This document shows, piece by piece, positions 3,593-59,789 of a DNA stretch of 64,000 nt. The notes under the pieces are model-generated. The model did not search any database. It saw nothing but the letters and a program-made list of their open reading frames with translations, and was not told the DNA's origin. The stretch's first letter is position 1, and each line of letters opens with the position of its first letter. Both the position numbers and the translations under genes were made by a program. The stretch is from a virus, in IMG/VR virus record IMGVR_UViG_3300029922_000001, positions 230,512 through 294,511 of that record, one strand, 5' to 3'.

Positions 3593-3593
3593 G

Positions 3594-3620: not shown

Positions 3621-3636
3621 CTGGTATACTCTAATT

Positions 3637-8741: not shown

Positions 8742-8759
8742 AATAATTCTCCTGTCTCG

Positions 8760-8833: not shown

Positions 8834-8996
8834 GTGTTTGTAATGGGTGTGGGGTTGGTATACGCTAATTAGCGTATACTTATGAAGCCAAACGCAGGAG
8901 AGTTCTGGGAAATATCATTATAGATTTGATAGTTTGACTTCATTACGTATCTATTATACCAGCATTTAGAGGAAAATTGTCTGAATTTCTATGTGT

Positions 8997-11132: not shown

Positions 11133-11492
11133 TTAGTCATTTATGTGTGCTAAACGACTTTTATAGATTAAAGTCGTTAATTCTTCATTGAGAAAAGATA
11201 TAAATTTATCATAATTAACATCGGCATTTTGAATGGAATGATTTACCTCTGGATATTTACCTTTATTCGAATGCACAATAACTTTTAAGTCTTGTAACAT
11301 AGCTCTTGTGGCTGGATTCCAAACATGTCCCCATCTACGATGTTCAAAACTTTTAAATATATCCAGTAATTCCTGAATGTTATATTTGACTCCCTTAACC
11401 ACAATGAAATAATGATGAACCCAAACTTGCTCAGACTCATATTTAACAGTATCAATGCCTAAATCATTCATAATATCAGAAGTATACCTCAA
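11133..11492 (-). CDS. hypothetical protein (weak paralog of 10767..11114)
   Basis: 119-aa ORF. Confidence 0.45.
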   Translation of the reverse strand: MRYTSDIMNDLGIDTVKYESEQVWVHHYFIVVKGVKYNIQELLDIFKSFEHRRWGHVWNPATRAMLQDLKVIVHSNKGKYPEVNHSIQNADVNYDKFISFLNEELTTLIYKSRLAHIND

Positions 11493-12136
11493 ATCGTATA
11501 TGATTTGAGGTTATAAAAATACGCCCTTGTTAATCTTTTGACCGTAGAGCTAGGTCCAATCCAAGACATGACGTGCCAACCACTAACACCCATTGACGAG
11601 CCTGTAACAGCCATTTGGAGCCTAATGGATATGTTCTTGACTTTCATGCCCAACTCTACACATAATGCTTTAATTGTGGTTTGAACCCACTCTAAGGAAA
11701 TGTCATTCTCACCTTCAAGAAGAGGTATATAATGATCTAAAAACAATCTAAAATCATCATCAAAAAGAGTTGGATTCTCAAAGGGAATTTCATAGTCAGA
11801 AATGGCAATACAACTCAAATGTTTAGCAAAATCAGATAGAATAAATGCTTTATCCTTAATATGCACAAGCATTTCATCAATGCGAGGATGATTCAAAGTG
11901 TCTTTGAAATGATGTAGTTGCGCTCCCATCAATCGTTTATTGAAATCCTTAATTTGCTTATTGTAGTCAACCTCATTGTCCTCATTGACTTCTATGGGGT
12001 TGTTTTTAATGATCGTATCTAAGATCATGAGATTTGGTAACTTTGAGTTATCAATATCGAACAAATTTGGTTTGTATAGAAAATCGCGCATAATGCGTTT
12101 ATTATACTTTATATTAACCCCTTTCAGCTTCTTCAA
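11489..12136 (-). CDS. hypothetical protein
   Basis: 215-aa ORF. Confidence 0.5.
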   Translation of the reverse strand: MKKLKGVNIKYNKRIMRDFLYKPNLFDIDNSKLPNLMILDTIIKNNPIEVNEDNEVDYNKQIKDFNKRLMGAQLHHFKDTLNHPRIDEMLVHIKDKAFILSDFAKHLSCIAISDYEIPFENPTLFDDDFRLFLDHYIPLLEGENDISLEWVQTTIKALCVELGMKVKNISIRLQMAVTGSSMGVSGWHVMSWIGPSSTVKRLTRAYFYNLKSYTI

Positions 12137-15209: not shown

Positions 15210-15379
15210 GCTTACATTATAACACTATTTGACTATAAAATACAACACTTTAGGTGGATTACGGTAATATTTAGCTAAAGTTGCTTGACCCTCCAGTGTT
15301 GCTAATGCACGATCAATAATAGCTTCTCTATCTTTCATATCTTGAATAATTGCATTAATATTTTTCGTGTTACTCGTGG

Positions 15380-15482
15380 AGCGGGTAGCGGAATTCGAAT
15401 CCGCATTTTAGCGTTCCTCTAAGTAAATATTTTAATATTTCTCACAGGCAACGCCATGTTCTAACCATTGAACTATATCCGC
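15380..15482 (-). tRNA. intron-containing tRNA, probable anticodon GCC (Gly); about 31-nt insertion in the anticodon loop; CCA encoded (15377..15379)
   Basis: Acceptor GCGGATA/TACCCGC with one mismatch. D-arm GTTC-AATGGTTA-GAAC. T-arm GCGGA-TTCGAAT-TCCGC. Anticodon stem TGGCG/CGCTA flanks TTGCC + 31 nt + AA. The insert contains an AAATATT/AATATTT hairpin. Confidence 0.55.
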
Positions 15483-18429: not shown

Positions 18430-18942
18430 CTAAGTACTATCTTTAGTTGGATTAACACTAAATAATTCTTTTCTTATTTCCATCCACAATTTTCCTAATT
18501 GATTTTGTCCATCTTTATTAGGTCCCCATCCCCAAAAATTATCACGCCAACTACACTCTACGATTGCATTATCACCACTAGCTTTAAGTTTTTTCATAAC
18601 ATACGGATGTTGATTTGCTTTTTCTTTTAAAATTTCTTTCATAATATCAAGTTTAACTTCATCCCAATCAACACGTCTTATATTTTTATTTTCCTCAGCC
18701 CATTTGAAACAAGCATGTGCTGAAGGCATTTTTCTAATCATATTTTTGATTTTTGGATCGTCAAATTTCTCAGAATGATAAGCGTGTTCTGATGTTGGAT
18801 AAATCTTACCCTTCCAATATAGTTGAAATGCAGAAAAATTAGAGAAAATATAATAATCACGTTCATAACAATCAAGGATTGGTAAGTCGTAATTCGCTAA
18901 ATCGTGATATTCAATCATGCTATTATTATAAGTAATCTTCAT
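18430..18942 (-). CDS. NADAR (YbiA-like) domain protein; predicted ADP-ribose N-glycosidase/hydrolase family
   Basis: Family signatures FSNFSAF ... YPTSEHAYHSEKF ... WGWGPNKDGQNQLGKLWMEIR. Confidence 0.8.
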   Translation of the reverse strand: MKITYNNSMIEYHDLANYDLPILDCYERDYYIFSNFSAFQLYWKGKIYPTSEHAYHSEKFDDPKIKNMIRKMPSAHACFKWAEENKNIRRVDWDEVKLDIMKEILKEKANQHPYVMKKLKASGDNAIVECSWRDNFWGWGPNKDGQNQLGKLWMEIRKELFSVNPTKDST

Positions 18943-20750: not shown

Positions 20751-20931
20751 TGCGAATTGGGATTTCTATGGTGAATTTTGCGCCTGAGTTTATTAATTCA
20801 GTATTTGAGACGATTAATTTTAAAATATGATCAAATTCTTCTTTATTAATATCTTTATTTATTAATAAAAAACCAGCTTTCATCGCCATATCATATGCTT
20901 TGTTGTTGTTCATAAGTACTCGGAGGGGCAT
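20725..20931 (-). CDS. hypothetical small protein
   Basis: 68-aa ORF. Its annotated start overlaps the 3' end of tRNA 20924..21013, so the true start may be internal. Confidence 0.3.
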   Translation of the reverse strand: MPLRVLMNNNKAYDMAMKAGFLLINKDINKEEFDHILKLIVSNTELINSGAKFTIEIPIRNEKNSSQK

Positions 20932-21013
20932 ACTAGAATCAAACTAGTTCATAACGCATTTGCTAGATCATTAACCTAGCAGTGCGTCGCGATTCTCATT
21001 TCGCCAATGCCCC
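20924..21013 (-). tRNA. intron-containing class I tRNA; anticodon GCU with a canonical or 36/37 insert, or GCA (Cys) if the insert lies 1-2 nt upstream; discriminator U
   Basis: Perfect acceptor GGGGCAT/ATGCCCC. D-arm GCG/CGC. T-arm ACTAG-TTTGATT-CTAGT. Anticodon stem ACGCA/TGCGT flanks CTGCT + 17 nt + AA. The insert hairpin GCTAG..CTAGC pairs with the anticodon. Confidence 0.6.
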
Positions 21014-21023
21014 AAACTCTCGG

Positions 21024-21099
21024 AGCGCGGAGGGAGAATCGAACTCAACCGAATAATGGTTTTGCAGACCATTCCAATTAACCACTCTGGTACCCGCGC
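21024..21099 (-). tRNA. tRNA-Cys (GCA)
   Basis: Acceptor GCGCGGG/TCCGCGC. D-arm CCAG-AGTGGTTAA-TTGG. Perfect anticodon stem ATGGT/ACCAT with loop CTGCAAA. Discriminator U, then CC, then GAG. The T-stem is weak. Confidence 0.7.
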
Positions 21100-22293: not shown

Positions 22294-22318
22294 AGTGTAT
22301 TATAGCATATTTTCTCGC

Positions 22319-22407
22319 GGGAGCTTAGAGATTCGAACTCTAAAGGCGCTTTTTACACGCCTAGCTGTTTTCAAGACAGTTTACCGTCACCAATGGCAGA
22401 ACTCCCG
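22319..22407 (-). tRNA. tRNA-Ser (UGA), class II
   Basis: Acceptor GGGAGTT/AGCTCCC. Anticodon loop CTTGAAA. Variable arm GGCG-TGTAAAAAG-CGCC. T-arm TAGAG-TTCGAAT-CTCTA. Discriminator G, then CGAG. Confidence 0.7.
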
Positions 22408-22516
22408 TATTATTTCGCGGTAAGTAAAATATTCGAATTCGATTCAAAGAATATGAAGACAAACTTTGTTTAATTATTGATTCTATTTTAGGTAGACTTA
22501 ACAATTAAACATCTCG

Positions 22517-22602
22517 AAGACACCAGAATCGAACTGGACTCGCTTTTTACACGAGCGAACAACTTTCCAGGTTGCCGTCATCACCATCAGACATTATCTT
22601 CC
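22517..22602 (-). tRNA. tRNA-Ser (GGA), class II
   Basis: Acceptor GAAGATA/TGTCTTC. Anticodon stem GCAAC/GTTGT with loop CTGGAAA. Variable arm is homologous to that of the Ser(UGA) gene (..GTGTAAAAAGCG..). T-loop TTCGATT. Confidence 0.6.
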
Positions 22603-22615
22603 ATATTATCTCGGA

Positions 22616-22688
22616 GCGCCAAATTGGAATCGAACCAATTTCCTATTGCTTACCAAGCAATCGTTCACCCACATGAACTTTAAGCGCA
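22616..22688 (-). tRNA. tRNA-Thr (GGU)
   Basis: D-arm GTTC/GAAC. Perfect anticodon stem ATTGC/GCAAT with loop TTGGTAA. T-arm ATTGG-TTCGATT-CCAAT. U6:U67 mismatch in the acceptor stem. Discriminator T, then CC, then GAG. Confidence 0.7.
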
Positions 22689-22701
22689 TATATCTCGTGG
22701 A

Positions 22702-22772
22702 GGCTCAATAGAGAATCAAACTCTACTCTGCGGTTTACAAAACCGCTGCATCGTCACAATGCTTTAAAGCCA
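22702..22772 (-). tRNA. tRNA-Thr (UGU); CCA encoded (22699..22701)
   Basis: Acceptor GGCTTTA/TTGAGCC (U:U at 6:67). D-arm GCAT/ATGC. Anticodon stem GCGGT/ACCGC with loop TTTGTAA. T-arm TAGAG-TTTGATT-CTCTA. Confidence 0.7.
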
Positions 22773-22785
22773 TATTATCTCGTAA

Positions 22786-22884
22786 GCCTAGTATCTGATT
22801 CGAACAGATGATGTTTGTATTCTTACTTGTTCTATTTTTTAACACAACAAGGTAAGTGCAATCGACCGCTATGCAAACTAGGCA
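22786..22884 (-). tRNA. intron-containing tRNA (99 nt), probable anticodon UGU (Thr); duplicate of 22702..22772 carrying an insert
   Basis: Perfect acceptor GCCTAGT/ACTAGGC. T-arm ATCTG-TTCGAAT-CAGAT. Anticodon stem CTTAC/GTAAG flanks CTTGT + 18 nt + AA. The insert extends the anticodon helix (CTTGTT/AACAAG). Confidence 0.5.
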
Positions 22885-22898
22885 TTTTATCTCGTGGA

Positions 22899-22984
22899 GG
22901 AAGGCAGCGGGATCGAACCGCAGACGTATTTCAGTCCGTATAGTTTAGCAAACTATCCTAATCGCCGTTTTAGATTACCTTCCA
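22899..22984 (-). tRNA. tRNA-Ser (GCU), class II; CCA encoded (22896..22898)
   Basis: Acceptor GGAAGGT/GCCTTCC. Anticodon stem ATAGT/ACTAT with loop TTGCTAA. Long variable arm. T-loop TTCGATC. Confidence 0.65.
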
Positions 22985-22992
22985 TTATCTCG

Positions 22993-23076
22993 GCTAACGG
23001 GGAGATTCAAACTCCCGAAGGTTTTCACCGATGCATTACGAGTGCATTCCAATTGATCAACTATGGGACGTTAGCA
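22993..23076 (-). tRNA. class II-like tRNA with anticodon CGU (Thr by anticodon; identity uncertain)
   Basis: Perfect acceptor GCTAACG/CGTTAGC. Perfect anticodon stem ATGCA/TGCAT with loop CTCGTAA. Variable arm GGT-GAAA-ACC. T-arm GGGAG-TTTGAAT-CTCCC. Confidence 0.5.
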
Positions 23077-23399
23077 TTTAACATTTCTACATATCTAACT
23101 AAAACCTGACCGTGACACCTTTCTTGTTCGCCCCAACCAGTTTTAGGTCTACAAAAGCATACCAATTTTTTATTATGTAAGGATTTTACCTTATCTTTGA
23201 ATATTAAATCAGTTTCTAATCTATTTTTTAGATATTTTTCATATTCTGGTAAAGTAGAACTAGGAACTTGACCTGGAGATAATACTATTGGATTGCCAAA
23301 ATATCCACTCTGTCCTTTCCCTGCTCTACCTATGTAGACATATTCAGAATCTTGTTCCCAACCCTTGTTGAGATGATATAAATTTACTACTTCAGTCAT
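23061..23399 (-). CDS. DUF4326-like protein
   Basis: VYIGRAGKGQSGYFGNP ... KLVCFCRPKTGWGEQERCHGQVL matches the DUF4326 conserved core as recalled. Its 3' end overlaps the tRNA at 22993..23076 by about 16 nt. Confidence 0.5.
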   Translation of the reverse strand: MTEVVNLYHLNKGWEQDSEYVYIGRAGKGQSGYFGNPIVLSPGQVPSSTLPEYEKYLKNRLETDLIFKDKVKSLHNKKLVCFCRPKTGWGEQERCHGQVLVRYVEMLNANVP

Positions 23400-23952
23400 T
23401 GACTTCCTCTATATATGCTGGTGGCACATATTCTGTTAACCATACACCATTTTCAGAACGATAAAAAACAAATCTATTCAAATCCATTTGCTTTGAATCC
23501 ACCTTCAATAGTGCATACTTTCCTCTTCTAGAACCAACATTAATTGCTGTTTCTATGTTTTCAGAAAGATGAACCGCATGACGATACATCTTCTTAATTC
23601 CTTCCTCTAAAATCATTGGTACAGCATCATATGTTGTACCATGATAAAGAATGGCAGGAGGATTCAATGGAACTAACTGAAGATCAACTTCACAAGAATG
23701 ACCTTGATTGGCTCTAATTCTTGCTCCTGATTCATCATAAGAATATCTTTGCTTATTATTTTCCGTCACTAACTGATCTAAATCAGCCTTTGTGATGTTA
23801 ATATTAAACTTTTTCAAACCGTCTAATAGTTGTGTTACGAATACATAACCTCCAAGATCAAGCTTTTCAACTCCAATCTTTTGTGGCTCATGTCGCAATA
23901 TTAACGAAATAAACTTTCCTATTCTTTTAAATTCACGTTCATCCTTAATCAT
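23392..23952 (-). CDS. tpt1: RNA 2'-phosphotransferase Tpt1/KptA
   Basis: Canonical Tpt1 motifs: ISLILRHEPQKIG, ARIRANQGHS, LYHGT, RHAVHLS. Confidence 0.85.
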   Translation of the reverse strand: MIKDEREFKRIGKFISLILRHEPQKIGVEKLDLGGYVFVTQLLDGLKKFNINITKADLDQLVTENNKQRYSYDESGARIRANQGHSCEVDLQLVPLNPPAILYHGTTYDAVPMILEEGIKKMYRHAVHLSENIETAINVGSRRGKYALLKVDSKQMDLNRFVFYRSENGVWLTEYVPPAYIEEVND

Positions 23953-23974: not shown

Positions 23975-24505
23975 TTACTTTTTAGGTAAGAGCATTACTG
24001 TCATTTGTTTCCCTTGTAAGAGAATTTCCCTATCTACAGTTACAATATCATTTAGTTTTTCCAAACAATATTCCAACTTTTGCTTTCCAATATGAGGGTG
24101 AGCGAGTTCTTTTGTTTTGAACTTGCAAACCAACTGCACTTTGTCATGCTTCCCAATAAATTCAACCGCTTTACGAATTGACGTATCCAAGTCATGTACA
24201 GCCGTATTAGGGCTAATACAAAGTGTTTTAAGTTCTTGAGGCTTTTTACGGTTGTCTTTTGCACGTTTTGCCTCTTCATACTTATATTTGCCATAGCTTA
24301 CGATTTTGCAGATAGGTGGTTGTACCTTATCAGATACGCACAACAAATCTAAACCAGCATCATATGCTATTTGGATTGCATCCTTCGTGGGCATTACACC
24401 AATATTTTTGTTATTAGCGTCAATGACCGTTACTTCGGTAAATTGCTTAATGAGTCTTTCATTAAGGGGTGGGAATTCTCTGCGATTACTTTTTTTCATC
24501 ATCAT
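23975..24505 (-). CDS. infC: translation initiation factor IF3 (bacterial type)
   Basis: N-domain VTVIDANNKNIGVMPTKDAIQIAYDAGLDLLCVSDKVQPPICKIVSYGKYKYEE plus a C-domain. Matches the IF3 family end to end. Confidence 0.85.
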   Translation of the reverse strand: MMMKKSNRREFPPLNERLIKQFTEVTVIDANNKNIGVMPTKDAIQIAYDAGLDLLCVSDKVQPPICKIVSYGKYKYEEAKRAKDNRKKPQELKTLCISPNTAVHDLDTSIRKAVEFIGKHDKVQLVCKFKTKELAHPHIGKQKLEYCLEKLNDIVTVDREILLQGKQMTVMLLPKK

Positions 24506-27081: not shown

Positions 27082-28380
27082 ATGAGTAGCATTCTCGCTA
27101 GTAAGAAATACATTTATACGGATATCCAGGCGAATAACAATAAGTTCTGGAATATTGACCGCTATGACGATCATACAGTAATTACACGTTGGGGACGTGT
27201 TGGCGACAAAGAACAAAGCAAATCTTTCCCACATGGATCTGAAACTTCCGCAATTGCTTTTTTTAATCAAAAGTGTAGTGAAAAATCCAAGAAGGGTTAT
27301 ACCGAACAACGAACCATTGAATCCAATACTACCGTAAAGCAAACAACCGTTGCTTCATCCAATCTTGAAAGTATTGCTAAAAGACAGATTCAAACTAATT
27401 CACCTGAACTAGATGCTTTGATTTCAAGGCTTACCAAAGCTAACATTCATAGCATTGTCGCAAACAGTAATATTAGCTATAACGATACAACTGGTTTGTT
27501 TTCAACGCCATTAGGAATTATTGATGAAGATGCGATTTTGGAAGCTAGAGAACTTCTAGTGTCCATTAATTCTATTGTTCTCAATAGAGACTTTGGAAAT
27601 AAGGATTTTGCTGGAATCACCAATAAGTATTTTAGAATCGTTCCTACAGTTATCGGTAGATATCGTCAAGAACCTCAAGACCTATTCCCTAATAAGGAAA
27701 CCGTTGTAAAGCAAAATGATCTTTTGGACTCACTTGAAGTCAGCTTGCAAACTGCTAAGGCAACCCCTGTAACTGCTACAACATCTGTTGAACCTGAAAA
27801 GAACATCTTTAATGTTAAGCTTCATGTGGTTGATGATCTTCCTGTTATTCAACGAATTACAGCCAAATATCAATCAACAATGAATCGTGGTCATCAGTGT
27901 TCCCATCTTGGTGTTAAGCGTGTTTATGAATTAGAAATTGGTGCTATGAAGACTGCTTTCGAAAATAAGGGTAAGCAAATTGGTGGTATTCAAGAGTTGT
28001 GGCACGGTTCAAGAGTTGCCAATATTCTTTCTATTCTCTATAAGGGAATGATTATCCCACCTTCTAATTCTAGTTTTGTGGCTGGTCGTTTGTTTGGAGA
28101 CGGTTTGTATTTTGCCAACCAAAGCACAAAGTCTCTTAATTATTCTTATGGATATTGGGATGCTAAAGGCAAGGACGAAAATTGCTTTATGTTCCTTTGT
28201 GATGTAGCTATGGGCAAGCACTATACTCCTAAGTATTTACAATCCAATATTCCTGCTGGATATGATAGTTTCTGGGCTAAGGCTGGTATTTCTGGCGTAC
28301 AGAATGATGAAATCATCGTTCCACGTCTTTATCAAGCCAATCCTAGATATTTGATCGAATTCTCACCAGGTGGTAGATAA
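27082..28380 (+). CDS. poly(ADP-ribose) polymerase (WGR domain + PARP regulatory/catalytic domains)
   Basis: WGR domain FWNIDRYDDHTVITRWGRVGDKEQSKS. Catalytic region HGSRVANILSILYKGM ... GDGLYFANQSTKSLNYS ... E in the C-terminus. True ATG is at 27082; the longer track ORF from 26797 overlaps the neighbouring gene. Confidence 0.85.
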   Translation: MSSILASKKYIYTDIQANNNKFWNIDRYDDHTVITRWGRVGDKEQSKSFPHGSETSAIAFFNQKCSEKSKKGYTEQRTIESNTTVKQTTVASSNLESIAKRQIQTNSPELDALISRLTKANIHSIVANSNISYNDTTGLFSTPLGIIDEDAILEARELLVSINSIVLNRDFGNKDFAGITNKYFRIVPTVIGRYRQEPQDLFPNKETVVKQNDLLDSLEVSLQTAKATPVTATTSVEPEKNIFNVKLHVVDDLPVIQRITAKYQSTMNRGHQCSHLGVKRVYELEIGAMKTAFENKGKQIGGIQELWHGSRVANILSILYKGMIIPPSNSSFVAGRLFGDGLYFANQSTKSLNYSYGYWDAKGKDENCFMFLCDVAMGKHYTPKYLQSNIPAGYDSFWAKAGISGVQNDEIIVPRLYQANPRYLIEFSPGGR

Positions 28381-33577: not shown

Positions 33578-34270
33578 TTATTTCTTGTCAGATAAGTCTT
33601 TAGCTTCTTCTTCTGCATAAAGTAGACGATCTTCATCCTTGAAGAATGATGCATCTGACATACAAGCTGCTCCAGCTAAAGCCATACGAGAGGTTGCTTG
33701 TCCAACAGTGCTATACATAGCTCTTGTTGCACCCTTCCTATAATTAAATGAATTAGCTTGTGTTCCACCTAGCTGTTGAGCAACACCCCAAGCGTTCATG
33801 TCTGCACCCAGATAAGTGAATGTCCATTGTCCAGTAGCTTCTAATTCTGAAATCAAAGTTTTAAGCTTAGTAGTATCTTTATATTCTTTAGAAGAATTTT
33901 CATGACCATCAGTGTTAACCACTACAACAGATTTATATTCGCCTGATAGTTCATTCTTAGCTCTATAAACCGTAATACCAATACCATCCCATAATGCAGT
34001 CATGCCATTTGGAGCGTACGTATTGGTTGTTAATGGTTCTACTTCACTAAGAGGCTTATTTGCATAAACTGTAGTTACTTGATTACTGAATTTAACGAGA
34101 GTGACATAATAAACTACATCAACGTCTTTCTTGAGGGTGTCGATATACTCATTGATACCTTCAATGAGTTCAAGTCTGACGTTTTCCATTGAACTGGATT
34201 CGTCAAGGATCAAATATACATAAACTGGAATATTTGATGGAATCTGGGCTGTTACATTTGCTTCTACCAT
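33578..34270 (-). CDS. VWA-domain protein
   Basis: MIDAS motif DESSSM near the N-terminus, plus VVVNTDGHENS. Confidence 0.65.
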   Translation of the reverse strand: MVEANVTAQIPSNIPVYVYLILDESSSMENVRLELIEGINEYIDTLKKDVDVVYYVTLVKFSNQVTTVYANKPLSEVEPLTTNTYAPNGMTALWDGIGITVYRAKNELSGEYKSVVVVNTDGHENSSKEYKDTTKLKTLISELEATGQWTFTYLGADMNAWGVAQQLGGTQANSFNYRKGATRAMYSTVGQATSRMALAGAACMSDASFFKDEDRLLYAEEEAKDLSDKK

Positions 34271-34303: not shown

Positions 34304-35779
34304 ATGAATCAGTTATGGTATACTAACTCCATGTTTGACACAGATCGTTTAATTCATTTAGAAAAGCTACAAGAAGCTGGTTTAAATCCATTTGATAATT
34401 ATGGATTTAAGATGACTTCACCAATTGGGTTATATCTTGATACTTTTAATGTATTGATTAATGCTGTTTGTTTTGATAATACACATAGTTTATGTGGTCG
34501 CATTATTTCTATGCGTATTATGGGTAATATGGCTTTTGTTGATATTTCCGATGGTTCTCACAAGGTCCAGGCTGTTTTCCGTAAGAACCTAATGGATGCT
34601 GACACTTATAAGGCATTAAGATACCTAGATGAAGGTGATCATATTGGCGTGACTGGCAATCCATTTCTTACCCAAGCTGGTGAGAAGTCAATTCTTGTTA
34701 CAGAAATTAAGGTTCTAAGTAAGTGTCTTATCCCTTTACCAATTGGTAAGAGGAAGGATGGGGAAGTCTTTGATGCAGTTGTAGATCCAGATATTAGGCT
34801 TAGGCATCGTCATATTGACCTTGTAGCCAATCCAGATAATAGGGCGATGTTAATTGCACGTTCAAAGATGGTAAGCTGTATTAGGCGATTTTTAGATCAA
34901 GAAGATTTTCTTGAAGTTGAAACACCTTTACTAACTGAGGTTGCTGGTGGAGCAAGTGCTAAGACATTTGATACTCATTATAATGCTTATGATTTAGATA
35001 TGCATCTTCGTATTTCTTTGGAAATTCCTTTGAAGAAGTTGATTTGTGGTGATATTCCTGCCGTTTATGAAATTGGTAAGGTTTTCCGCAATGAAGGTGC
35101 TGACGCAACTCATAATCCAGAATTTACACTTTTGGAATGGTATCGTGCGTATTCAACACCAGAAGAGGAAATGCAAAGGGTTCAAGATTTAGTTTCATAT
35201 TTGATGCAAAAGTGGGATGCTGATCCTGCATGGGATGTAATTACTGTGCGTGATGCTATTTTAACCTATGTGCCTGATGTTTCCTGGTATGATCTTGATG
35301 TTATTGAGAAAATGAGAGAACATGCTCGTAGAAATGGAATCCATGTAACAGATCAAGATACTATGGGGAAGATTGAAGAAAAGCTAGTCGCTAAGTTCGT
35401 TGAGCCTAATCTGTTATATCCCACATTCTTAACAGAACATCATATCAGTAATTCACCTTTAGCTAGAACAGCACCAGGGAAGCCTGATCGTGCTTATAGA
35501 TTTGAAGCATATATTAATGGTTATGAAATCGCTAATGGTTATTCTGAGTTAAACAATGCAGTTGAACAAAAGGAACGATTAGAGGATCAAGTAGCTCAAA
35601 GAAATGGTGGAGACGCTGAAGCACAACCTTATGATCAAGATTTTATTTATGCTCTTGCCTCCGGTTGCCCTGCCGTAACGGGCGTGGGAATCGGTCTAGA
35701 TAGATTGGCAATGGTATTATATGGAGCAACACAAATTAGGCAAGTAATATTTTTCCCAACAATGAAGCATAGGAGTTAA
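34304..35779 (+). CDS. lysS: lysyl-tRNA synthetase (class IIb)
   Basis: N-terminal OB anticodon-binding domain. Motif 2 FRNEGADATHNPEFTLLEWYRAY is LysRS-specific (HNPEFT). Motif 3 GVGIGLDRLAMVL. Confidence 0.9.
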   Translation: MNQLWYTNSMFDTDRLIHLEKLQEAGLNPFDNYGFKMTSPIGLYLDTFNVLINAVCFDNTHSLCGRIISMRIMGNMAFVDISDGSHKVQAVFRKNLMDADTYKALRYLDEGDHIGVTGNPFLTQAGEKSILVTEIKVLSKCLIPLPIGKRKDGEVFDAVVDPDIRLRHRHIDLVANPDNRAMLIARSKMVSCIRRFLDQEDFLEVETPLLTEVAGGASAKTFDTHYNAYDLDMHLRISLEIPLKKLICGDIPAVYEIGKVFRNEGADATHNPEFTLLEWYRAYSTPEEEMQRVQDLVSYLMQKWDADPAWDVITVRDAILTYVPDVSWYDLDVIEKMREHARRNGIHVTDQDTMGKIEEKLVAKFVEPNLLYPTFLTEHHISNSPLARTAPGKPDRAYRFEAYINGYEIANGYSELNNAVEQKERLEDQVAQRNGGDAEAQPYDQDFIYALASGCPAVTGVGIGLDRLAMVLYGATQIRQVIFFPTMKHRS

Positions 35780-35780
35780 A

Positions 35781-36353
35781 ATGGTAAGTCACGATTATTT
35801 AAAAGCATCAATTAAAGGTTATCTTGTTAAGGCACAAGATTACACTTGGACTTTACAGGGATTTGGAATGTTAAGACTTCATCTAACAGATGAATTCCGA
35901 CTCAATGTTTGGGATTCTAACTTTAGAGTCCCAAATGTAACACTTACTCATACCCATCCTTGGGATTTTGAAAGTGTGATTATTGCAGGTATGGTTGATA
36001 ATGTCATTATGGAAGAAACTGATGAAGAAGAAATGTCTTGTCCTTATCTTCGCGCCTCTATTAAACCAGGAATTGGTGGAGGTATTGATGTAAATACAAT
36101 TAAACCTGTAAATTTACGTGATGCAAGTATTAAGAGGTATACTGAAGGACAGGTTTATAGCCAAACAGCAAATATGATTCATGTTAGTAATCCTTTGGAT
36201 GGCTCTATTACATTTAATCGTCGTCATCGTGTTGGCGAAGATAAAGCACTTGTATATTGGGCTAGTAAAGAATTTATTACAGCAGAACCAAGAATTGCTA
36301 CGTCAGAAGAAGTTTCTACTATAACAAAACGATCACTTAATTTGTGGTTTTAA
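35781..36353 (+). CDS. hypothetical protein
   Basis: 190-aa ORF with an AGGAG Shine-Dalgarno upstream. Confidence 0.5.
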   Translation: MVSHDYLKASIKGYLVKAQDYTWTLQGFGMLRLHLTDEFRLNVWDSNFRVPNVTLTHTHPWDFESVIIAGMVDNVIMEETDEEEMSCPYLRASIKPGIGGGIDVNTIKPVNLRDASIKRYTEGQVYSQTANMIHVSNPLDGSITFNRRHRVGEDKALVYWASKEFITAEPRIATSEEVSTITKRSLNLWF

Positions 36354-39204: not shown

Positions 39205-39651
39205 CTATGGTGATTTCGCCCAATAGTTTTTATAATGTTTAACTTCAGCATCTAAATCAAAAGGTAATCCTTTAACATGGTTGAAGTAAGCTTTAGATAT
39301 AATGCCAGTCATATCATCCGCATGAAGTACTCCTAAATTTTTAAACCACTTAGCTAATACGGAGTCATGCCACAATCCCCAGGTATTGCGCATATAAGTA
39401 CCATAGCCATGATGTGGCATCATTTCATAAGTGGATTTAGCATCATTTTTGATGAAATCTATATATTCAGGAGTTGCCACTGAATCAAAATAAGCGATAA
39501 CTTCATCTAGATTATTTGGGATATTGGTTGCACTAATAGCGGGTAAGATTTTTACAACCTTAACTAGCCTATTAAAATATTCATTATTATCGAAAGCGTC
39601 TTGAATTGATTTGTCTGTGACTTTTTCCATGCGTACTTCATCATTGTTCAT
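39205..39651 (-). CDS. hypothetical protein
   Basis: 148-aa ORF. Confidence 0.45.
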   Translation of the reverse strand: MNNDEVRMEKVTDKSIQDAFDNNEYFNRLVKVVKILPAISATNIPNNLDEVIAYFDSVATPEYIDFIKNDAKSTYEMMPHHGYGTYMRNTWGLWHDSVLAKWFKNLGVLHADDMTGIISKAYFNHVKGLPFDLDAEVKHYKNYWAKSP

Positions 39652-40196
39652 AGTTTATTATACTTAATCAGATTCTCTTCTTGTGTGATTTTATCCCAAG
39701 GTGCTTTAGATTGAAGAACTTTTTCAACAGTTGGATCATAATCCCAACGTTTAATCATATTTTGAATACTTTTAAGAGGTACACTATGTTGATTTCTTTT
39801 AGCTAATTCTTGTGCATCGAATTTCCAAGGTGTTTCAGGTTCATGAAAACTAACTTTATAATCATATTTTTGAGCAAGTTTTACGTACTCTCGAAATTCA
39901 TAAAAAGAACAATTTGTATTGTCACAAATAATAGGAGTAATACCTTGTTGCATTGCCACTTCAGTTCTTCTTTCATTTTCTTTATGATTTTCAGTTAGTT
40001 TATTAACATCAAATTTATATTCACCATTAACCATAAATAGATCATCAGTAGAATGAATAACTCCACCTTTTCCTAATTGCTTAGAAAGAAAACTTTTGCC
40101 AGAACCGGGAAGTCCGCGAATTATTCTTAACTCTTTTTCTTGTTGTGCTTTTCTATACCAAGTAGACATAATTCGATTATACCATTTTTCTATCAA
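39648..40196 (-). CDS. P-loop kinase (AAA_33 / polynucleotide-kinase-like)
   Basis: Walker A RGLPGSGKSFLSKQL and a downstream ICDNTN segment, consistent with a Walker B / Asp-containing lid. 182 aa. Confidence 0.6.
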   Translation of the reverse strand: MIEKWYNRIMSTWYRKAQQEKELRIIRGLPGSGKSFLSKQLGKGGVIHSTDDLFMVNGEYKFDVNKLTENHKENERRTEVAMQQGITPIICDNTNCSFYEFREYVKLAQKYDYKVSFHEPETPWKFDAQELAKRNQHSVPLKSIQNMIKRWDYDPTVEKVLQSKAPWDKITQEENLIKYNKL

Positions 40197-44557: not shown

Positions 44558-44567
44558 ATTTATCTCG

Positions 44568-44651
44568 TCCCGGCGAGTGGACTCGAACCACCACGCCCTT
44601 TCAGGCAACAGATTTTGAGTCTGCCGCATCTACCAATTACACCACACCGGG
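44568..44651 (-). tRNA. tRNA-Leu (CAA), class II
   Basis: Acceptor CCCGGTG/CGCCGGG. Anticodon stem GCAGA/TCTGT with loop CTCAAAA. Variable arm GCC-TGAAAG-GGC. T-arm GGTGG-TTCGAGT-CCACT. Discriminator A, then CGAG. Confidence 0.75.
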
Positions 44652-44871
44652 ATATTTCTCGTATAAGAAATTAATTCTTATTTTGTGAATCAAGTTGTCT
44701 TACTCTACTAAATAAAGCATCTCTCATTTCTTTGTTTTCACTTACTTCTTTAGCGTATGCACCCATCATATTTCTAAACATTTTTTGACCTTCTTCAGTA
44801 TTCATTGCTGATTCAATTATTTTCATTTTTTCAGGACTTGTTATAATCATATTAATTCTCCAATATCTCGG

Positions 44872-44973
44872 TGAGCAAACAGGGACTTGAACCCTGATGA
44901 CATTTTACTGTCGATGGGTTAGCAAAATTCTGATCTTGCTAAGCCCATTGCGTCTACATTTCGCCATTCGCCC
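44872..44973 (-). tRNA. intron-containing tRNA-Leu (UAG), class II, 102 nt with an 18-nt insert in the anticodon loop
   Basis: Acceptor GGGCGAA/TTTGCTC. Anticodon stem ATGGG/CCCAT flanks CTTAG + 18 nt + AA. The insert forms the TTAGCAA/TTGCTAA helix with the anticodon. Variable arm GACA-GTAAAA-TGTC. T-arm CAGGG-TTCAAGT-CCCTG. Confidence 0.55.
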
Positions 44974-44982
44974 ATATTCTCG

Positions 44983-45068
44983 TGCGGAGTAAAAGATTTG
45001 AACTTTCACCTGTTGATAAGACAGAATGGGACCTTAGCCCATCGCGGCTACCATTACGCCAACCCCGC
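44983..45068 (-). tRNA. tRNA-Leu (AAG), class II
   Basis: Acceptor GCGGGGT/ACTCCGC. D-arm GCG/CGC. Perfect anticodon stem ATGGG/CCCAT with loop CTAAGGT. Variable arm CTGT-CTTATCA-ACAG. T-arm GAAAG-TTCAAAT-CTTTT. Confidence 0.75.
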
Positions 45069-45077
45069 ATATTCTCG

Positions 45078-45159
45078 TCCGGGCGAGAGGGTTTGAACCT
45101 CCATGTCTTGCGACGGCAGGTTTTAAACCTGCTGCGGCTACCAATTTCGCCACACCCGG
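45078..45159 (-). tRNA. tRNA-Leu (UAA), class II
   Basis: Acceptor CCGGGTG/CGCCCGG. Anticodon stem GCAGG/CCTGC with loop TTTAAAA. Variable arm GTC-GCAA-GAC. T-arm GGAGG-TTCAAAC-CCTCT. Confidence 0.75.
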
Positions 45160-45417: not shown

Positions 45418-46764
45418 GTGAAACAAATTATTACAGCTAAATTAAAATTAGAAACAAATAAAGAACAATTTAAAGAATTAACTAATCTTAGTTTAGCTTA
45501 TTGTGGCGCTTTGAATTTTGGCTCTAATAAAGCCTTTGAATTAGACAAAACTACTAATGCTAACTTATTGCACAAAAGTATATATCGAGAATGTCGTGAT
45601 AAATTTGGATTACCATCACAATTAGCTTGTAGCGTTTCTAGATATGTTACTGCTTCTTATAAAACATTGTGGACAATTACCAATAAAAATATTAAAGCAA
45701 GAAAAAACAAAGAAACTAAGAGAGTTTATAAAGGACTGAATAAAGCTCCAAAATATATATCAAGAACGACTATGTTTCAATATGGTAGAGATTTTACATT
45801 CAAGAAGGATCAACAAATTAGTATTATTACTCTTAATGGAAGAATTCTTCTAGATTATAAAGGATGGAATAAACATCTTAATTTAATTAAAGATGAAAAT
45901 ACCAAAATTGGTGGAGCTAAACTTTATTATGATAAAGCTAAGAAAACTTTCTATCTCTTAGTTAGTTTAGAAATAGAAACACAAGAAGAAAAACAAATTA
46001 ACACAATAGGTATTGATTTGGGTCAAAGATATTTGGCTGTGGTAACTGATACACAAGATAATACATTGTTTATTCCTGGTAAGGAATGTATTAATCAAGT
46101 TGGAAAATATCAACGAGTTCGTAGTAGTCTTCAAAAAAAGATTAAAACGAATAAGAAAAATGGTAAAGGCACTCGTTCTATAACTAGAAAATTAATCCAA
46201 GTTAAAGGACAAGAGAGACGGTATAGATTATCATTAAATCATCAAACAGCAAGTTCGATATTACAAAGATTTCCTAATTCAAATATAGGATTAGAAAATC
46301 TTAAAGATATTAGAACAAGAACAGAAAGACATAGCAGTAAAAAAGATAGCAAAAAAAGAAAAGAAGCTAATCGTAATAAAGCTTCTTGGTCTTTTAATGA
46401 GTTACAACAATTAATAGAATATAAAGCTAATTTATATGGTAGTAAAATATTTAAAGTAGATGCCCATTATACATCTCAAATGTGTACTAAATGTGGTTAT
46501 ACTTCTAAAGAAAACAGACCTAAAAGTGGCTTGAATTTTATTTGTTGTAATTGTAATTTTAAATTACATGCTGATTTGATTGGAGCTAGAAATATAGCTA
46601 TGAGAACATTGTTATCTAGACAAGATTTAGATAATAAGGGGCATTTATCAATTGTCCCAGTAAGCGGCAAAGCCGCTTTAGATACCTCGAACAGTGAAGT
46701 TAAAGCGGAATCCTTGAAAAAGTATTCTGAATTGAGATGGAGTTCGGAGGCAAACTTAACTTAA
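45418..46764 (+). CDS. tnpB: TnpB (IS200/IS605 OrfB) RuvC-like RNA-guided-nuclease family protein (Fanzor/TnpB-like)
   Basis: RuvC-I IGIDLGQRYLAVVTD. RuvC-II ..SWSFNELQQLIEYKA. Zinc finger CTKCGY ... CCNCNF. RuvC-III HADLIGARNIAMR. GTG start in the track. Confidence 0.8.
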   Translation: MKQIITAKLKLETNKEQFKELTNLSLAYCGALNFGSNKAFELDKTTNANLLHKSIYRECRDKFGLPSQLACSVSRYVTASYKTLWTITNKNIKARKNKETKRVYKGLNKAPKYISRTTMFQYGRDFTFKKDQQISIITLNGRILLDYKGWNKHLNLIKDENTKIGGAKLYYDKAKKTFYLLVSLEIETQEEKQINTIGIDLGQRYLAVVTDTQDNTLFIPGKECINQVGKYQRVRSSLQKKIKTNKKNGKGTRSITRKLIQVKGQERRYRLSLNHQTASSILQRFPNSNIGLENLKDIRTRTERHSSKKDSKKRKEANRNKASWSFNELQQLIEYKANLYGSKIFKVDAHYTSQMCTKCGYTSKENRPKSGLNFICCNCNFKLHADLIGARNIAMRTLLSRQDLDNKGHLSIVPVSGKAALDTSNSEVKAESLKKYSELRWSSEANLT

Positions 46765-52684: not shown

Positions 52685-53794
52685 CTAAAGCAGTGGGCTT
52701 GTTACAACCGCGCTTTGCGCGGGAACAATAGGGATATTGACTAATCCCCTACATTGAATATTTAAGGAAGCATTATAATCAGCATTAGCAGCGAAGCTGC
52801 AAGATAAACATTTAAATTCACTCTGATTCTTCCTATTTTTCTTATTACAATATCCACAATGAGAACACGTCTGGGACGTGTATGCTGGATTAACAAGAAA
52901 AACAGGAACACCTTGTTCCTTGGCTTTATATTCAATAAACGATCTAAGTTGAGCGAAGCTCCAACTTAATCTTTCATTACGATTAGCTTTTCTGACCGTT
53001 ACTCTTTTATTGATTCCTTTTAACTCTTCTAGAGCTATACCAAATTGAGTGCCTTTAGCTTTATTAACTATTTCTTTGGAAATACAATGATTAACATCTT
53101 TTCTAAATCTTGATTCTTTATTTCCAATAGTTTTAATTCTTTTCTTTGCAGAGCGTGTCCCACGCTTCTGTAATCTCGTTCTGTGATCATGATATTTCTT
53201 TCTCTTATTTTCTATTTTATCAGAACTATAGATAGTATTATCAGAAGTAGTAGCAATATTTTTAACACCTAAATCGACTCCAATAATTCCTTTAGTATTA
53301 TATTTTTCTTCAGTTGGAGTTGGAATATCAAGAGTACATAATAAGTAAAATTTATTATTTTGAAGTACTAGATCAACTTGACCTTTTCTAAATTTAAATA
53401 ATTCATTATTCCATATTTGGATTGGAATATTCATTCTTCCTTCAATAGTCCAAATATTAACTATTTTATTATTTTTAAAAGTAATAACTCTGTCGTCATA
53501 GACGACAGCAGAAGTTTTCTTAAATGAATTAGGATATTTTCTATGTTTACTTATTTTATAAGAACAAGATACAACGTCAATAGCTCTAATGGTTAATTGA
53601 GAAGAAAATTCTTTATATTTTTCTCTTGAAGGATGATAAACAATTTTTTGCAATTGATTTTTATGAAATTGCCCAACTTTAAAAGCTTCTTCAGAAAATT
53701 CATTACAAATTTGATTAAAGACATTCATCGTGCCCAAGAGGGCACGATATTGATTATCATCTGTATTTAGCTTAATCTTCAATATTTTCTTCAC
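52685..53794 (-). CDS. tnpB: TnpB (IS200/IS605 OrfB) RuvC-like nuclease family protein, second diverged copy
   Basis: RuvC-I IGVDLGVKNIATTSD. RuvC-II ..SWSFAQLRSFIEYKA. Zinc finger CSHCGY ... CLSCSF. RuvC-III ADYNASLNI. Confidence 0.8.
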   Translation of the reverse strand: MKKILKIKLNTDDNQYRALLGTMNVFNQICNEFSEEAFKVGQFHKNQLQKIVYHPSREKYKEFSSQLTIRAIDVVSCSYKISKHRKYPNSFKKTSAVVYDDRVITFKNNKIVNIWTIEGRMNIPIQIWNNELFKFRKGQVDLVLQNNKFYLLCTLDIPTPTEEKYNTKGIIGVDLGVKNIATTSDNTIYSSDKIENKRKKYHDHRTRLQKRGTRSAKKRIKTIGNKESRFRKDVNHCISKEIVNKAKGTQFGIALEELKGINKRVTVRKANRNERLSWSFAQLRSFIEYKAKEQGVPVFLVNPAYTSQTCSHCGYCNKKNRKNQSEFKCLSCSFAANADYNASLNIQCRGLVNIPIVPAQSAVVTSPLL

Positions 53795-57371: not shown

Positions 57372-58250
57372 ATGATGAAATCAAAATCTCAAGAGGTGTG
57401 GATGCTACGCGGCGTCCCCGGCAGTGGAAAAAGCACTTGGGCAAAGGAATTTATTAAAAATAATCCTGGTTATGTTCGCACTAATAACGATGAAATTAGA
57501 CTTGAAATGTTTAATCGCGTTTTTGATAAGAATGATACTAAGGCTGTTGATGCTGAGCGAAACAGAGTTATTAAGGAAACCCTTGATAATGGTCTTAGTA
57601 TTGTTATTGATAACACTAATTTGTCACCTAAGCGTGAAGACGAATACAAGACGTTGGCGAAGAAGTATGGTGCTGAATTTAAGATTCAGTGTTTTATGCA
57701 TGTACCTTTACGTGATTGTTTGGCAAACAACTATAAGCGACCTAATCCGGTTGGTGAGAAGATTATCAAGGATATGTACAGACAGTTTGTAGAGCCTTTG
57801 TTGAAGCCAACTCCTGTTGAATATGTAGAGGGTTTAGAGGACGTGTACGTGTGCGATATGGATCAAACATTATCTTTAATGAAAGGAATTCGTGGACCTT
57901 TCGAATGGCATAAGGTTAATTTAGATTTACCAAATATTCCGGTAGTTAAATTAATTCAAAAACTTGCTAAGACAAATAAAATCATTATTATGTCTGGTAG
58001 GGATGGTTGTTGCCGTGATTTAACTATTGAATGGCTTAATCAACATGAAGTTCCGTTTTTTGAATTGCATATGAGGGCGATGAATGACTCTAGAAAGGAT
58101 AGTACTGTGAAGGAAGAACTTTATAAATCAAAATTACAATATCGTTTTAATATTCTAGGTTGGTTCGACGACCGCGAAGCGGTTTGTGAACTAGTTTATT
58201 CATTAGGATTACCACTGTTCCGTGTGGGGGACCCTCATAGTTCGTTTTGA
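57372..58250 (+). CDS. bifunctional polynucleotide 5'-kinase / 3'-phosphatase (T4 PseT-like): N-terminal P-loop kinase + C-terminal HAD phosphatase
   Basis: Walker A LRGVPGSGKSTWAKEF. HAD motif I CDMDQTLS (DxDxT) in the C-terminal half. Preceded by TTGGTATAATCAATGT-ATG. Confidence 0.75.
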   Translation: MMKSKSQEVWMLRGVPGSGKSTWAKEFIKNNPGYVRTNNDEIRLEMFNRVFDKNDTKAVDAERNRVIKETLDNGLSIVIDNTNLSPKREDEYKTLAKKYGAEFKIQCFMHVPLRDCLANNYKRPNPVGEKIIKDMYRQFVEPLLKPTPVEYVEGLEDVYVCDMDQTLSLMKGIRGPFEWHKVNLDLPNIPVVKLIQKLAKTNKIIIMSGRDGCCRDLTIEWLNQHEVPFFELHMRAMNDSRKDSTVKEELYKSKLQYRFNILGWFDDREAVCELVYSLGLPLFRVGDPHSSF

Positions 58251-58294: not shown

Positions 58295-58576
58295 ATGTTT
58301 AAATTCCTTAGAAATATATTTAGCAAAGAAGCTGAAGCTTCATGGGTACACTGTGGTACCTATTTAGACACCAATCATTATTACGCAGCAGATGATTGCT
58401 ATTGTGTGAACTGTTTACCTGATAGCCCAGCTTACTCTCTGGTTAAGGTGTTTAAAAAACACACTAGAGATAATAAATGGCAGATGAAGGAAACTATATT
58501 CGCATTATCTCTCGAAGAGTATCAAGGATATTCAAAGAAAATCCCTAACACTCTGATGCCACCACCTATTAGTTGA
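58295..58576 (+). CDS. small Cys-rich protein
   Basis: WVHCGTYLDTNHYYAADDCYCVNC. Confidence 0.4.
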   Translation: MFKFLRNIFSKEAEASWVHCGTYLDTNHYYAADDCYCVNCLPDSPAYSLVKVFKKHTRDNKWQMKETIFALSLEEYQGYSKKIPNTLMPPPIS

Positions 58577-59789
58577 GTGGTAATGGTGTTTCTTGTTTGT
58601 AAATGCTTTGGTCAGCGCATGAGCCAAGTGATTTATTTTTATCTCTTTCTTGTCTAAGGGTAATATTAATTGCGTCATTTCGTTGTTTTTGTCTTTTTAG
58701 TTCATGTTCTATTTTTTCTTTTTCTATCAATAATTTTTGATAATCTTTTTTAAGTGTTTTGAGATTTAAGCATTTATTTTCTGTATGAACTAATATCTTA
58801 ACTATGCCATAATCATTCATAATGCCAACTCCCATGTCAGCCAATACAGTCCAAGATGCTTCAATTTCATTAATATTTATATTTTTTTCAGAATTAAAAA
58901 TTGGATAAAAACCTGTTTCATTGGCGTAAGCCAGTGTGTCTATTAACTCTATAGGTCTTTTACCTTCGATATATTTATTTTCATATACTTTAATATCCTG
59001 TAATACATTAATTACTCCAATATATTCTTTTTTACTTAGTATATAAACAGCATTTTTAGGACATATAGTACAAACTAAAATTGGAATATTTTTATAATAA
59101 GCCCAAATAGGTGCTACTCCAACTTCGTGATTTTCAACATCGTAATTAGTTTTAATAAGTTCTTCGTGATCCCAACTTTCAACATGGCTCCACAAACAAG
59201 GGGACATTAAAATTGCTCCACGAGGTAGTCCATGTTGATCAATTAATGACAAAGCGAAATTTATGTTTTCTGGCTCCAATTTATCAATTACAGTTATTGA
59301 ATGGTCAGCTTCTACTGCTGCATTAACAACATTTAATACTAATGTATCTATTTGTCTCATTAAAGCATCTTTTGATCTTTCTAAAATATGTTTATGAGCA
59401 AGCTCTTTACTTTTAAAATGTTTATATAGCTCTCTGGATTCTTTTTTTGTTAATAATGGATAACTAGCCATAGTAACAGTGGGTATGGATAAAGCCTCTG
59501 GTTTTATATTGACAACTGGCACTGTTCCGCACGGATCACCACCAATTATATAAGCTTTAGAAGCTATGTCTCTCATATGATAAATACGAATATAATTATC
59601 TCTAAGATTATCATAGTATTCTTTAAGTTCTTCGTTTGTAAGTGTAAGATGAACATTATTATGTTTATGTTGATCTTGTTTTATTTTATGATGTTCTTTA
59701 ATTTCCGCTTCTGTGAAATCATCACGTTGTAAAATATGAAATGCCACCGGATTATAGGGTGCGCTAACAGGTATAGTACGTATATTCAT
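58569..59789 (-). CDS. hypothetical protein, tandem paralog of 59948..61045, C-terminal coiled coil
   Basis: Shared blocks NPVAFHILQRDD, CPKNAVYILSKKEYIGVI, NDYGIVKILV. Confidence 0.55.
   Translation of the reverse strand: MNIRTIPVSAPYNPVAFHILQRDDFTEAEIKEHHKIKQDQHKHNNVHLTLTNEELKEYYDNLRDNYIRIYHMRDIASKAYIIGGDPCGTVPVVNIKPEALSIPTVTMASYPLLTKKESRELYKHFKSKELAHKHILERSKDALMRQIDTLVLNVVNAAVEADHSITVIDKLEPENINFALSLIDQHGLPRGAILMSPCLWSHVESWDHEELIKTNYDVENHEVGVAPIWAYYKNIPILVCTICPKNAVYILSKKEYIGVINVLQDIKVYENKYIEGKRPIELIDTLAYANETGFYPIFNSEKNININEIEASWTVLADMGVGIMNDYGIVKILVHTENKCLNLKTLKKDYQKLLIEKEKIEHELKRQKQRNDAINITLRQERDKNKSLGSCADQSIYKQETPLPLN

Follow-up and report, generated by a model that had tools for sequence, protein, structure and literature searches.

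The region analysed here was a 64,000-nucleotide (nt) stretch (the window) of the IMG/VR virus record IMGVR_UViG_3300029922_000001 (positions 230,512 to 294,511), and the gene under study was a lysyl-tRNA synthetase (LysRS) gene on its plus strand. The window sequence matches, without differences, a segment of the 521,591-bp metagenomic ENA contig ERZ27248709:k141_1408874. The LysRS gene lies in an uninterrupted open reading frame (ORF) of 491 amino acids (aa) at 34304-35779, stop codon included, that opens with ATG. By its sequence, the gene product is a full-length, bacterial-type class IIb LysRS. Coordinates of the gene, its domains and the other features of the window are collected in Table 1.

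Two Pfam domains were recognised in the protein: an N-terminal OB anticodon-binding domain (PF01336, 2e-15) and the class II core of Asp, Lys and Asn enzymes (PF00152, tRNA-synt_2, 3e-67). The NCBIfam LysRS model NF001756/PRK00484 matched with 474.1 bits, above its cut-off of 468. Models for AspRS scored at most 130 bits and models for AsnRS at most 81 bits with the same protein, far under the LysRS models, and both identities were rejected. The closest solved structure was the LysRS of Geobacillus stearothermophilus (3a74; E = 8e-95, aa 18-490), the second was Escherichia coli LysU (1e1o; 5e-92), and identity to solved bacterial LysRS was about 40% end to end. Two other families with a homologous class II core were also rejected: EpmA/PoxA/GenX (TIGR00462, 229.9 against a cut-off of 286.9), which has about 325 aa and no anticodon-binding domain, whereas the OB domain is present here; and LysX (381.5 against a cut-off of 742, with only profile positions 625-1101 matched), which is fused to an N-terminal MprF domain of about 600 aa for a total of about 1100 aa, a domain absent from this protein of 482-491 aa. 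The original prediction, made from the sequence alone, of a full-length class IIb LysRS was borne out by the OB domain, the class II core and the lead of the LysRS-specific models; the top homologues were LysRS, not AsnRS or AspRS, and LysRS-specific residues were present.

All three class II motifs were found (Table 1). The HNPEFT string that had been reported for motif 2 occurs at aa 270-275 (nt 35111-35128); the GxGIDR string reported for motif 3 does not occur literally, the sequence reading GVGIGLDR (aa 460-467, nt 35681-35704). Further active-site residues E240, E408, E415 and N417 were kept. Conservation was scored against 51 cellular LysRS, of which 24 were of Armatimonadota type and 27 represented GTDB species spread over many phyla; a column was called invariant if it had at most one exception among the 51. 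Of 81 such columns, the window LysRS retained 76, and the five that changed (L241I, E294Q, P380H, D418N and P457A) all lie outside the catalytic motifs. The residues that read U35 and U36 of the anticodon (R71, F78, Q89 and E127, equivalent to human R136, F144, Q155 and E195) were conserved in the window protein and in its two phage orthologues. Altogether, the enzyme resembles bacterial LysS and LysU in two-domain architecture, length (about 490-510 aa in that family), motifs 1-3, the lysine, ATP and Mg site and the U35/U36-reading residues. It differs from them in being phage-encoded and long-branched, in being at most 46% identical to cellular proteins among the scored candidates, and in clade-specific replacements at otherwise fixed positions (for example MGK to MGN, Y91V, T125A and P380H).

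Compared with the 77.8%-identical orthologue of a sister phage (contig L002), the ratio of nonsynonymous to synonymous divergence (dN/dS) of the LysRS was 0.27 at a dS of 0.64, which indicates purifying selection on the gene. A deletion of about 12 aa was present in the insertion domain of the window LysRS relative to the sister phage.

The coordinates originally given for the ORF were exact; the start codon, though, is probably ATG 34331 rather than 34304, for a protein of 482 aa. This start is preferred because both phage orthologues begin with the equivalent MFDxDRL; because, in the 60%-identical orthologue on contig L004, an in-frame TAG stands 8 codons before the start Met with no start codon between; because a public gene call (P0001), 100% identical over 482 aa, starts at Met10; and because the sequence TGG-TATACT stands 6 nt upstream of ATG 34331. 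L004 has TATAAT at the same spacing before its LysRS start. With a -10-like element ending 6 nt from the ATG, the LysRS mRNA is predicted to be leaderless or very short-leadered. A scan for promoter and terminator consensus sequences around the LysRS gene returned hits at chance level and was not used.

The same arrangement recurs across the window. In total, 58 of 100 ORFs had an in-frame ATG with a TATAAT-like hexamer 4-10 nt upstream, against a background of 9.8% for all ATG triplets, and the gap between hexamer and ATG was most often 6 nt (25 ORFs) or 5 nt (14 ORFs). A Shine-Dalgarno core was present at only 5 of 32 genes. These counts suggest that most window genes have their own promoter and a leaderless mRNA. 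The hexamer was often TGG/AGG-TATAAT, with examples at 34319-34324 and upstream of 57372, 2069 and 40169; at 5-6 nt before the ATG it would occupy the canonical -12 to -7 position if transcription began at the A of the ATG. In E. coli, IF3 discriminates against leaderless initiation. The genome with this leaderless-type start signal also encodes its own, very divergent IF3.

Relatives were taken from candidates scored in a database of 5.8 billion proteins. Only two other clusters among the scored candidates exceeded 46% identity to the window LysRS: P0002 (75%) and P0003 (60%). P0002 was on a 34-kb scaffold with genes in the same order, namely PARP-like, Band_7, trypsin-like, VWA, LysRS, a 190-aa gene and a 372-aa gene; P0003 came from a phage-like contig of 8 kb with 44% GC. 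Assemblies made independently from other samples had the LysRS gene at the same place in the gene order. No relative was found when JGI metagenomes were scanned with clade-specific peptide patterns.

A neighbour-joining tree of 61 sequences (478 columns, 100 bootstraps) placed the three phage LysRS, from contigs of 33-44% GC, in one clade with 100% bootstrap support and a long branch. This trio was sister to, and not nested in, a clade with Fimbriimonadales, Chthonomonadaceae and other Armatimonadota as its named members, the joint clade having 97% support. The best GTDB match was a Fimbriimonadales metagenome-assembled genome (MAG) at 45%, and other phyla gave 35-41%. Derived strings RHRH(L/I)DL and ICGD are shared with the Armatimonadota-type enzymes, the nearest cellular clade, to which identity was 44-46%. 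The window LysRS was distinct from every cellular LysRS compared. For the aminoacyl-tRNA synthetases (aaRS) of huge phages, Al-Shayeb et al. (2020) use "distinct from but related to" with the host enzyme as the reference. GC content at third codon positions (GC3) was 0.239 in the LysRS gene and 0.231 +/- 0.057 across another 28 genes of the window; the nearest cellular (Armatimonadota-type) LysRS genes had values of 0.63 and 0.77. Codon frequencies of the window LysRS gene correlated with those of the phage at r = 0.80. Because its GC3 matches the phage and is far from that of Armatimonadota-type genes, the LysRS is read as a long-term resident of a very-large-phage lineage, not a recent import. 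The sister relationship to Armatimonadota-type LysRS does not establish the host: phage GC was 33% against 54-57% at the Armatimonadota-type loci, and host inference from the phage IF3 had only 4 divergent matches to draw on.

The neighbours of the LysRS gene had been described as hypothetical, which was not wholly right: a VWA protein is encoded upstream and a cupin-fold protein downstream. The cupin gene starts 2 nt past the LysRS stop, and a Shine-Dalgarno-like TAGGAGT lies within the LysRS 3' end; this spacing and this sequence suggest that the two genes form a bicistronic unit. Flanking genes of the window phage and L002 were 97-100% identical in protein sequence (dS 0-0.18), whereas the cupin protein was 82.6% identical (dS 0.62), close to the values given above for the LysRS. 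In a sliding comparison of 100 nt, the divergent block ran from about 34331 to 36350, exactly the LysRS and cupin genes, and identity was 100% from 36375 on. This sharply bounded block amid nearly identical flanks indicates that recombination between related huge phages has exchanged the LysRS-cupin pair for a more distant allele from within the phage clade. Other divergent patches relative to L002 were the AAA_33 kinase and a 195-aa gene.

The cupin model had a predicted local distance difference test (pLDDT) score of 96, its three histidines H57, H59 and H134 were invariant in the family, and its fold matches were weak (thiol dioxygenases and JMJD7, TM-scores 0.3-0.4). The family is widespread in phage-like contigs, including ones without LysRS, and is not beside P0003. 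For these two reasons the cupin was rejected as an obligate partner of LysRS, and no functional link between the two is drawn.

The surrounding genome has a phage character. The only GenBank-phage match of its two major-head proteins was gp27 of Bacillus phage G (497 kb), at 22% identity, and an endolysin and several HNH/homing endonucleases are encoded in the window. Many small ORFs had no family match, and no terminase, portal or tail genes were seen within the 64 kb. Megablast of the LysRS gene and 24 kb around it against 50,697 GenBank phage records gave no match. At least 11 tRNAs were called in the window by ARAGORN, alongside genes for IF3, transfer-messenger RNA (tmRNA), Tpt1 and a T4-type polynucleotide kinase/phosphatase (Pnkp); the Pnkp of the sister contig contained a HAD_PNKP domain. 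As many as 15 aaRS in a single genome, together with IF3 and tmRNA, have been reported from huge phages (Al-Shayeb et al., 2020; PMC7162821), and the profile of this genome is that of such phages. The viral context implied by the original prediction therefore holds, in the contig of 521,591 bp, the phage head, lysis and homing-endonuclease genes and the translation set.

Table 1. Positions of the LysRS gene, its parts and other annotated features (window coordinates in nt unless another contig is named).
Feature	Coordinates	Strand	Remarks
Maximal LysRS ORF	34304-35779	+	491 aa; Pfam, NCBIfam and PDB matches
Probable true LysRS coding sequence	34331-35779	+	482 aa; begins MFDTDRL (Met10 of maximal ORF)
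Extended -10-like promoter element TGG-TATACT	34316-34324	+	3' end 6 nt from ATG 34331; putative function
N-terminal OB-fold anticodon-binding domain	34487-34717	+	aa 62-138, PF01336
Class II catalytic domain	34787-35764	+	aa 162-487, PF00152
Motif 1 FLEVETPLL	34907-34933	+	Invariant P208
Motif 2 FRNEGADATHNPEFTLLEWY	35084-35143	+	R262, E264, H270, E273, F274, E278 and Y280 kept
Motif 3 GVGIGLDRLAMVL	35681-35719	+	Invariant R467
Cupin-fold gene downstream of LysRS	35781-36353	+	190 aa; 3-His centre H57, H59, H134; phrog_4784, no Pfam family
Separate VWA protein	33578-34270	-	Transcribed divergently from LysRS
DUF6794 protein and adjacent AAA_33 kinase	39205-40169	-	L002 15794-16726; L004 5104-6087
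Ser/Thr tRNA array	22317-23075	-	
Other tRNAs	8760-8833, 21022-21099, 44567-45159		None is tRNA-Lys
tRNA-like genes with anticodon-loop insertions	15377-15482, 20922-21013, 22785-22883, 44870-44973	-	Four genes
IF3	23975-24505	-	Pfam IF3_N 1.3e-23, IF3_C 3.1e-19
Tpt1/KptA RNA 2'-phosphotransferase	23392-23952	-	Pfam PF01885, 1.6e-44; NAD/ADP-ribose-related
T4-type Pnkp (tRNA healing)	57372-58250	+	phrog_505, 6.4e-77, full length
tmRNA	63063-63417	+	ARAGORN; Rfam RF00023 62.9 bits (local search), gathering score 47
GluRS/GlnRS-type anticodon-binding domain protein, stand-alone	11489-12136	-	215 aa; PF19269 4.6e-14
PARP-like protein (WGR, regulatory and catalytic domains)	27082-28380	+	NAD/ADP-ribose-related
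NADAR domain protein	18430-18942	-	NAD/ADP-ribose-related
AAA ATPase, then protein with metallopeptidase-like (DUF2201_N) and VWA domains	2069-5034	+	
Two TnpB genes (OrfB_IS605 / Cas12f-like TNB)	45418-46764; 52685-53794	+; -	One abuts Leu tRNA array
Two tandem major-head paralogues	58569-59789; 59948-61045	-	phrog_2522, 2.7e-17 and 3.7e-13

Several of these features showed further peculiarities. The tmRNA was missed in a whole-window Rfam run at the gathering threshold and recovered by local search; its predicted tag, GKSYAYVG, is unusual, and the tmRNA was identical in a sister contig from another sample. The four tRNA-like genes had anticodon-loop insertions of 17-31 nt in the intron mode of ARAGORN, far too short for group I introns, and two of them reached the Rfam tRNA gathering score. 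Together with Tpt1, Pnkp and a second kinase, they hint at phage-encoded tRNA splicing or repair. This second kinase is the AAA_33 protein, which is paralogous to the kinase domain of Pnkp (33% identity, 6e-10) and Pnkp-like itself. It is paired with the DUF6794 protein 1-5 kb from LysRS in three of three phage contexts, despite 60% LysRS identity and different GC. The stand-alone GluRS/GlnRS-type anticodon-binding protein was rejected as half of a second, split aaRS, as the adjoining ORFs contain no catalytic domain. In the sister phage, genes for NadA, NUDIX and Tad6 proteins are additionally inserted in the NAD/ADP-ribose region (L002 5048-6136 and 18369-19503).

We consider it fairly probable that the gene encodes an active LysRS, which during infection maintains the pool of charged tRNA-Lys and so sustains translation of a lysine-rich phage proteome. 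The enzyme would activate lysine with ATP and transfer it to tRNA-Lys, either that of the host or one encoded elsewhere in the 521-kb genome. Lys-tRNA-Lys topped up in this way would allow the AT-rich, lysine-rich phage proteome to be translated despite a limiting or shut-down host supply, with LysRS acting as part of a wider translation-support set of tRNAs, tmRNA, IF3 and tRNA-healing enzymes. A role of this kind had been proposed from AAA/AAG-rich codon usage, and the composition fits it without proving it: lysine made up 8.4% of window-ORF residues, joint highest with Leu, and AAA accounted for 73% of Lys codons. Enzymatic activity, timing of expression and selective benefit are here inferred from the gene and its setting.

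Several points weigh against this charging role. That the host runs short of LysRS or of Lys-tRNA is assumed. Neither ARAGORN, run in both its intron and no-intron modes, nor Rfam gave a tRNA-Lys in the 64 kb of the window, and none was present in about 18 kb of sister-contig flank; as window tRNAs are grouped by amino acid (Ser/Thr and Leu), those for Lys may be clustered in another part of the 521-kb genome. The window LysRS has a long branch, and 60 of 199 positions that were at least 95% conserved in 117 nearest cellular homologues were changed in it. The equivalog model TIGR00499 (lysS_bact) scored 424.4 bits, 3 bits under its cut-off of 427.6, a shortfall attributed to divergence of the phage clade, with no domain or motif missing. 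LysRS ranked near the top of 16 neighbouring genes in dN/dS, which points to looser constraint on it than on most of them. Finally, the cassettes of aaRS and tRNA-Lys genes that accompany LysRS in some other huge phages were not seen in this phage.

Those cassettes came from two sources of viral LysRS, a pattern-limited IMG/VR scan (7 loci) and a sensitive tblastn search of GenBank phages (one convincing case, the 636-kb LR756504). The LysRS of LR756504 and of 479- and 488-kb IMG/VR contigs were 33-35% identical to the window LysRS and shorter (378-419 aa), and they are regarded as separate acquisitions because they fall elsewhere in the tree. In the 479-kb contig (L093), three tRNA-Lys lie about 1 kb upstream of LysRS (8724-8962), whereas the window has no nearby tRNA-Lys. 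In LR756504 (L094), three tRNA-Lys are immediately upstream and one immediately downstream (5730-5973, 7140-7212). The tRNA-Lys beside these two LysRS genes have CUU and UUU anticodons. The third of these huge-phage LysRS loci (L092) had a single tRNA-Lys about 9.5 kb downstream. A class II LysRS annotated as LysU is also known from the 273-kb Microcystis phage PhiMa05 (PMC8093824). Most tblastn matches to "phage" LysRS were discounted as host-genome fragments under phage names: many GenBank "phage" records (Listeria, Staphylococcus, Salmonella, Enterococcus and Acinetobacter) carry host lysS, lysU or epmA on unannotated fragments. Such apparent host contamination would inflate counts of phage aaRS.

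Giant eukaryotic viruses of the Mimivirus, Klosneuvirus and Tupanvirus lineages encode aaRS within an expanded translation repertoire. By comparison, the context of the window is bacterial (tmRNA, IF3, sigma-70-type -10 elements and a phage-G-like head protein) and its LysRS is bacterial-type; the LysRS of a giant-virus MAG was 34% identical to it and did not group with it. Like the aaRS of huge phages, the window LysRS occurs in a phage genome of more than 200 kb together with tRNAs, tmRNA and IF3; for those enzymes a comparable role has been put forward, namely charging phage tRNAs and redirecting translation (PMC7162821).

Counter-defence offers another, unlikely explanation: still a charging enzyme, LysRS would be retained chiefly because host anticodon nucleases favour tRNA-Lys as a target, would be tuned to a nuclease-resistant phage tRNA-Lys that the host LysRS handles poorly, and would act alongside the tRNA-healing enzymes. 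The anticodon pocket bears on this. Contacts were mapped through a fragment of the human LysRS sequence. Its residue identities matched, in 14 of 14 cases, those of the cryogenic electron microscopy paper on human LysRS-tRNALys3 that lists the anticodon contacts (PMC11878792). F78, Q89 and E127 were aligned to their human counterparts and R71 was matched to R136 by manual alignment. Residues of the U33/wobble-34 pocket (human K141, M157 and K193) correspond to N75/M76, V91 and A125. The changes K75N, A76M/I, Y91V and T125A were present in three of three phage proteins, in which the U35/U36 readers were unchanged; all 24 of the nearest cellular LysRS have K, A, Y and T at these sites. These changes are suggestive, yet do not go beyond the general divergence at conserved sites (about 30%), and the mapping behind them depends on a human complex and on the human sequence fragment.

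Other evidence on counter-defence was similarly divided. PrrC and PARIS AriB both target tRNA-Lys, and phage T5 escapes PARIS through its own tRNA-Lys variant (PMC1484252, PMC12409363, PMC4810235). The full T4-type Pnkp, the second Pnkp-like kinase and Tpt1 are all encoded in the window, the DUF6794-AAA_33 pair accompanies LysRS in all three phage contexts, and LysRS-tRNA-Lys cassettes exist in other huge phages. Against this, the roughly 82 kb examined contained no phage tRNA-Lys, Pnkp is common in large phages irrespective of LysRS, and an RNA ligase was not found in the window. In a more specific form, LysRS would be one member of a partly orthogonal pair that resists host defence; its pocket, remodelled, would let it charge a loop-altered phage tRNA-Lys that evades PrrC-, RloC- or PARIS-type nucleases, and it would form with Pnkp, Tpt1 and the nearby kinase a module that keeps tRNA-Lys working; we judge this form quite unlikely.

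Class II LysRS is a known Ap4A (diadenosine tetraphosphate) synthase, and a signalling role of that kind had been raised in the original prediction. As a moonlighting enzyme, the window LysRS might serve the phage less by charging tRNA than by making Ap4A or other dinucleotide polyphosphates, as E. coli LysU does, or by supplying Lys-tRNA for a non-ribosomal transfer, possibly with the cupin. The apparent co-transcription and joint exchange of LysRS and cupin, and a neighbourhood rich in nucleotide- and NAD-related accessory genes, lend this some colour, and the phage enzyme Mom, which uses Gly-tRNA, is a precedent for aminoacyl-tRNA in DNA modification (PMC13219725). It is nevertheless very unlikely: the protein has kept its complete anticodon-binding domain and its U35/U36 readers, neither of which would be needed for side chemistry alone, the cupin family also occurs without LysRS, is no neighbour of the 60% orthologue and gave weak fold matches, and no aminoacyl-tRNA transferase was identified near LysRS. 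That the gene is a mis-assembly or contaminant, a recent passenger or a decaying relic is highly improbable, for although most GenBank "phage" LysRS matches proved to be host fragments, its branch is long and its TIGR00499 score is slightly under the cut-off, the ORF is intact, its GC3 and codon frequencies match the phage and not its nearest cellular relatives, assemblies made independently from other samples show it at an equivalent position, its dN/dS is 0.27, and its three-member clade on contigs of 33-44% GC has full bootstrap support.

The window adds a full-length, well-supported LysRS lineage, maintained by selection, to the known translation genes of very large phages. As phage aaRS in genomes of more than 200 kb are established, it is a distinct lineage of a known kind, and because such enzymes have been recognised since 2020 the finding alone leaves current understanding unchanged. 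LysRS entered huge phages more than once, and the short LysRS linked to tRNA-Lys in other huge phages are not related to the present clade; once inside phage genomes, genes of this kind act as modules that can be exchanged. The leaderless-type start signal with a phage IF3, and the loop-inserted tRNA genes beside Tpt1 and Pnkp, may merit more attention than the LysRS itself. Since bacterial immune systems repeatedly target tRNA-Lys, a phage-owned LysRS would be a reasonable candidate for tests of capacity versus specificity.

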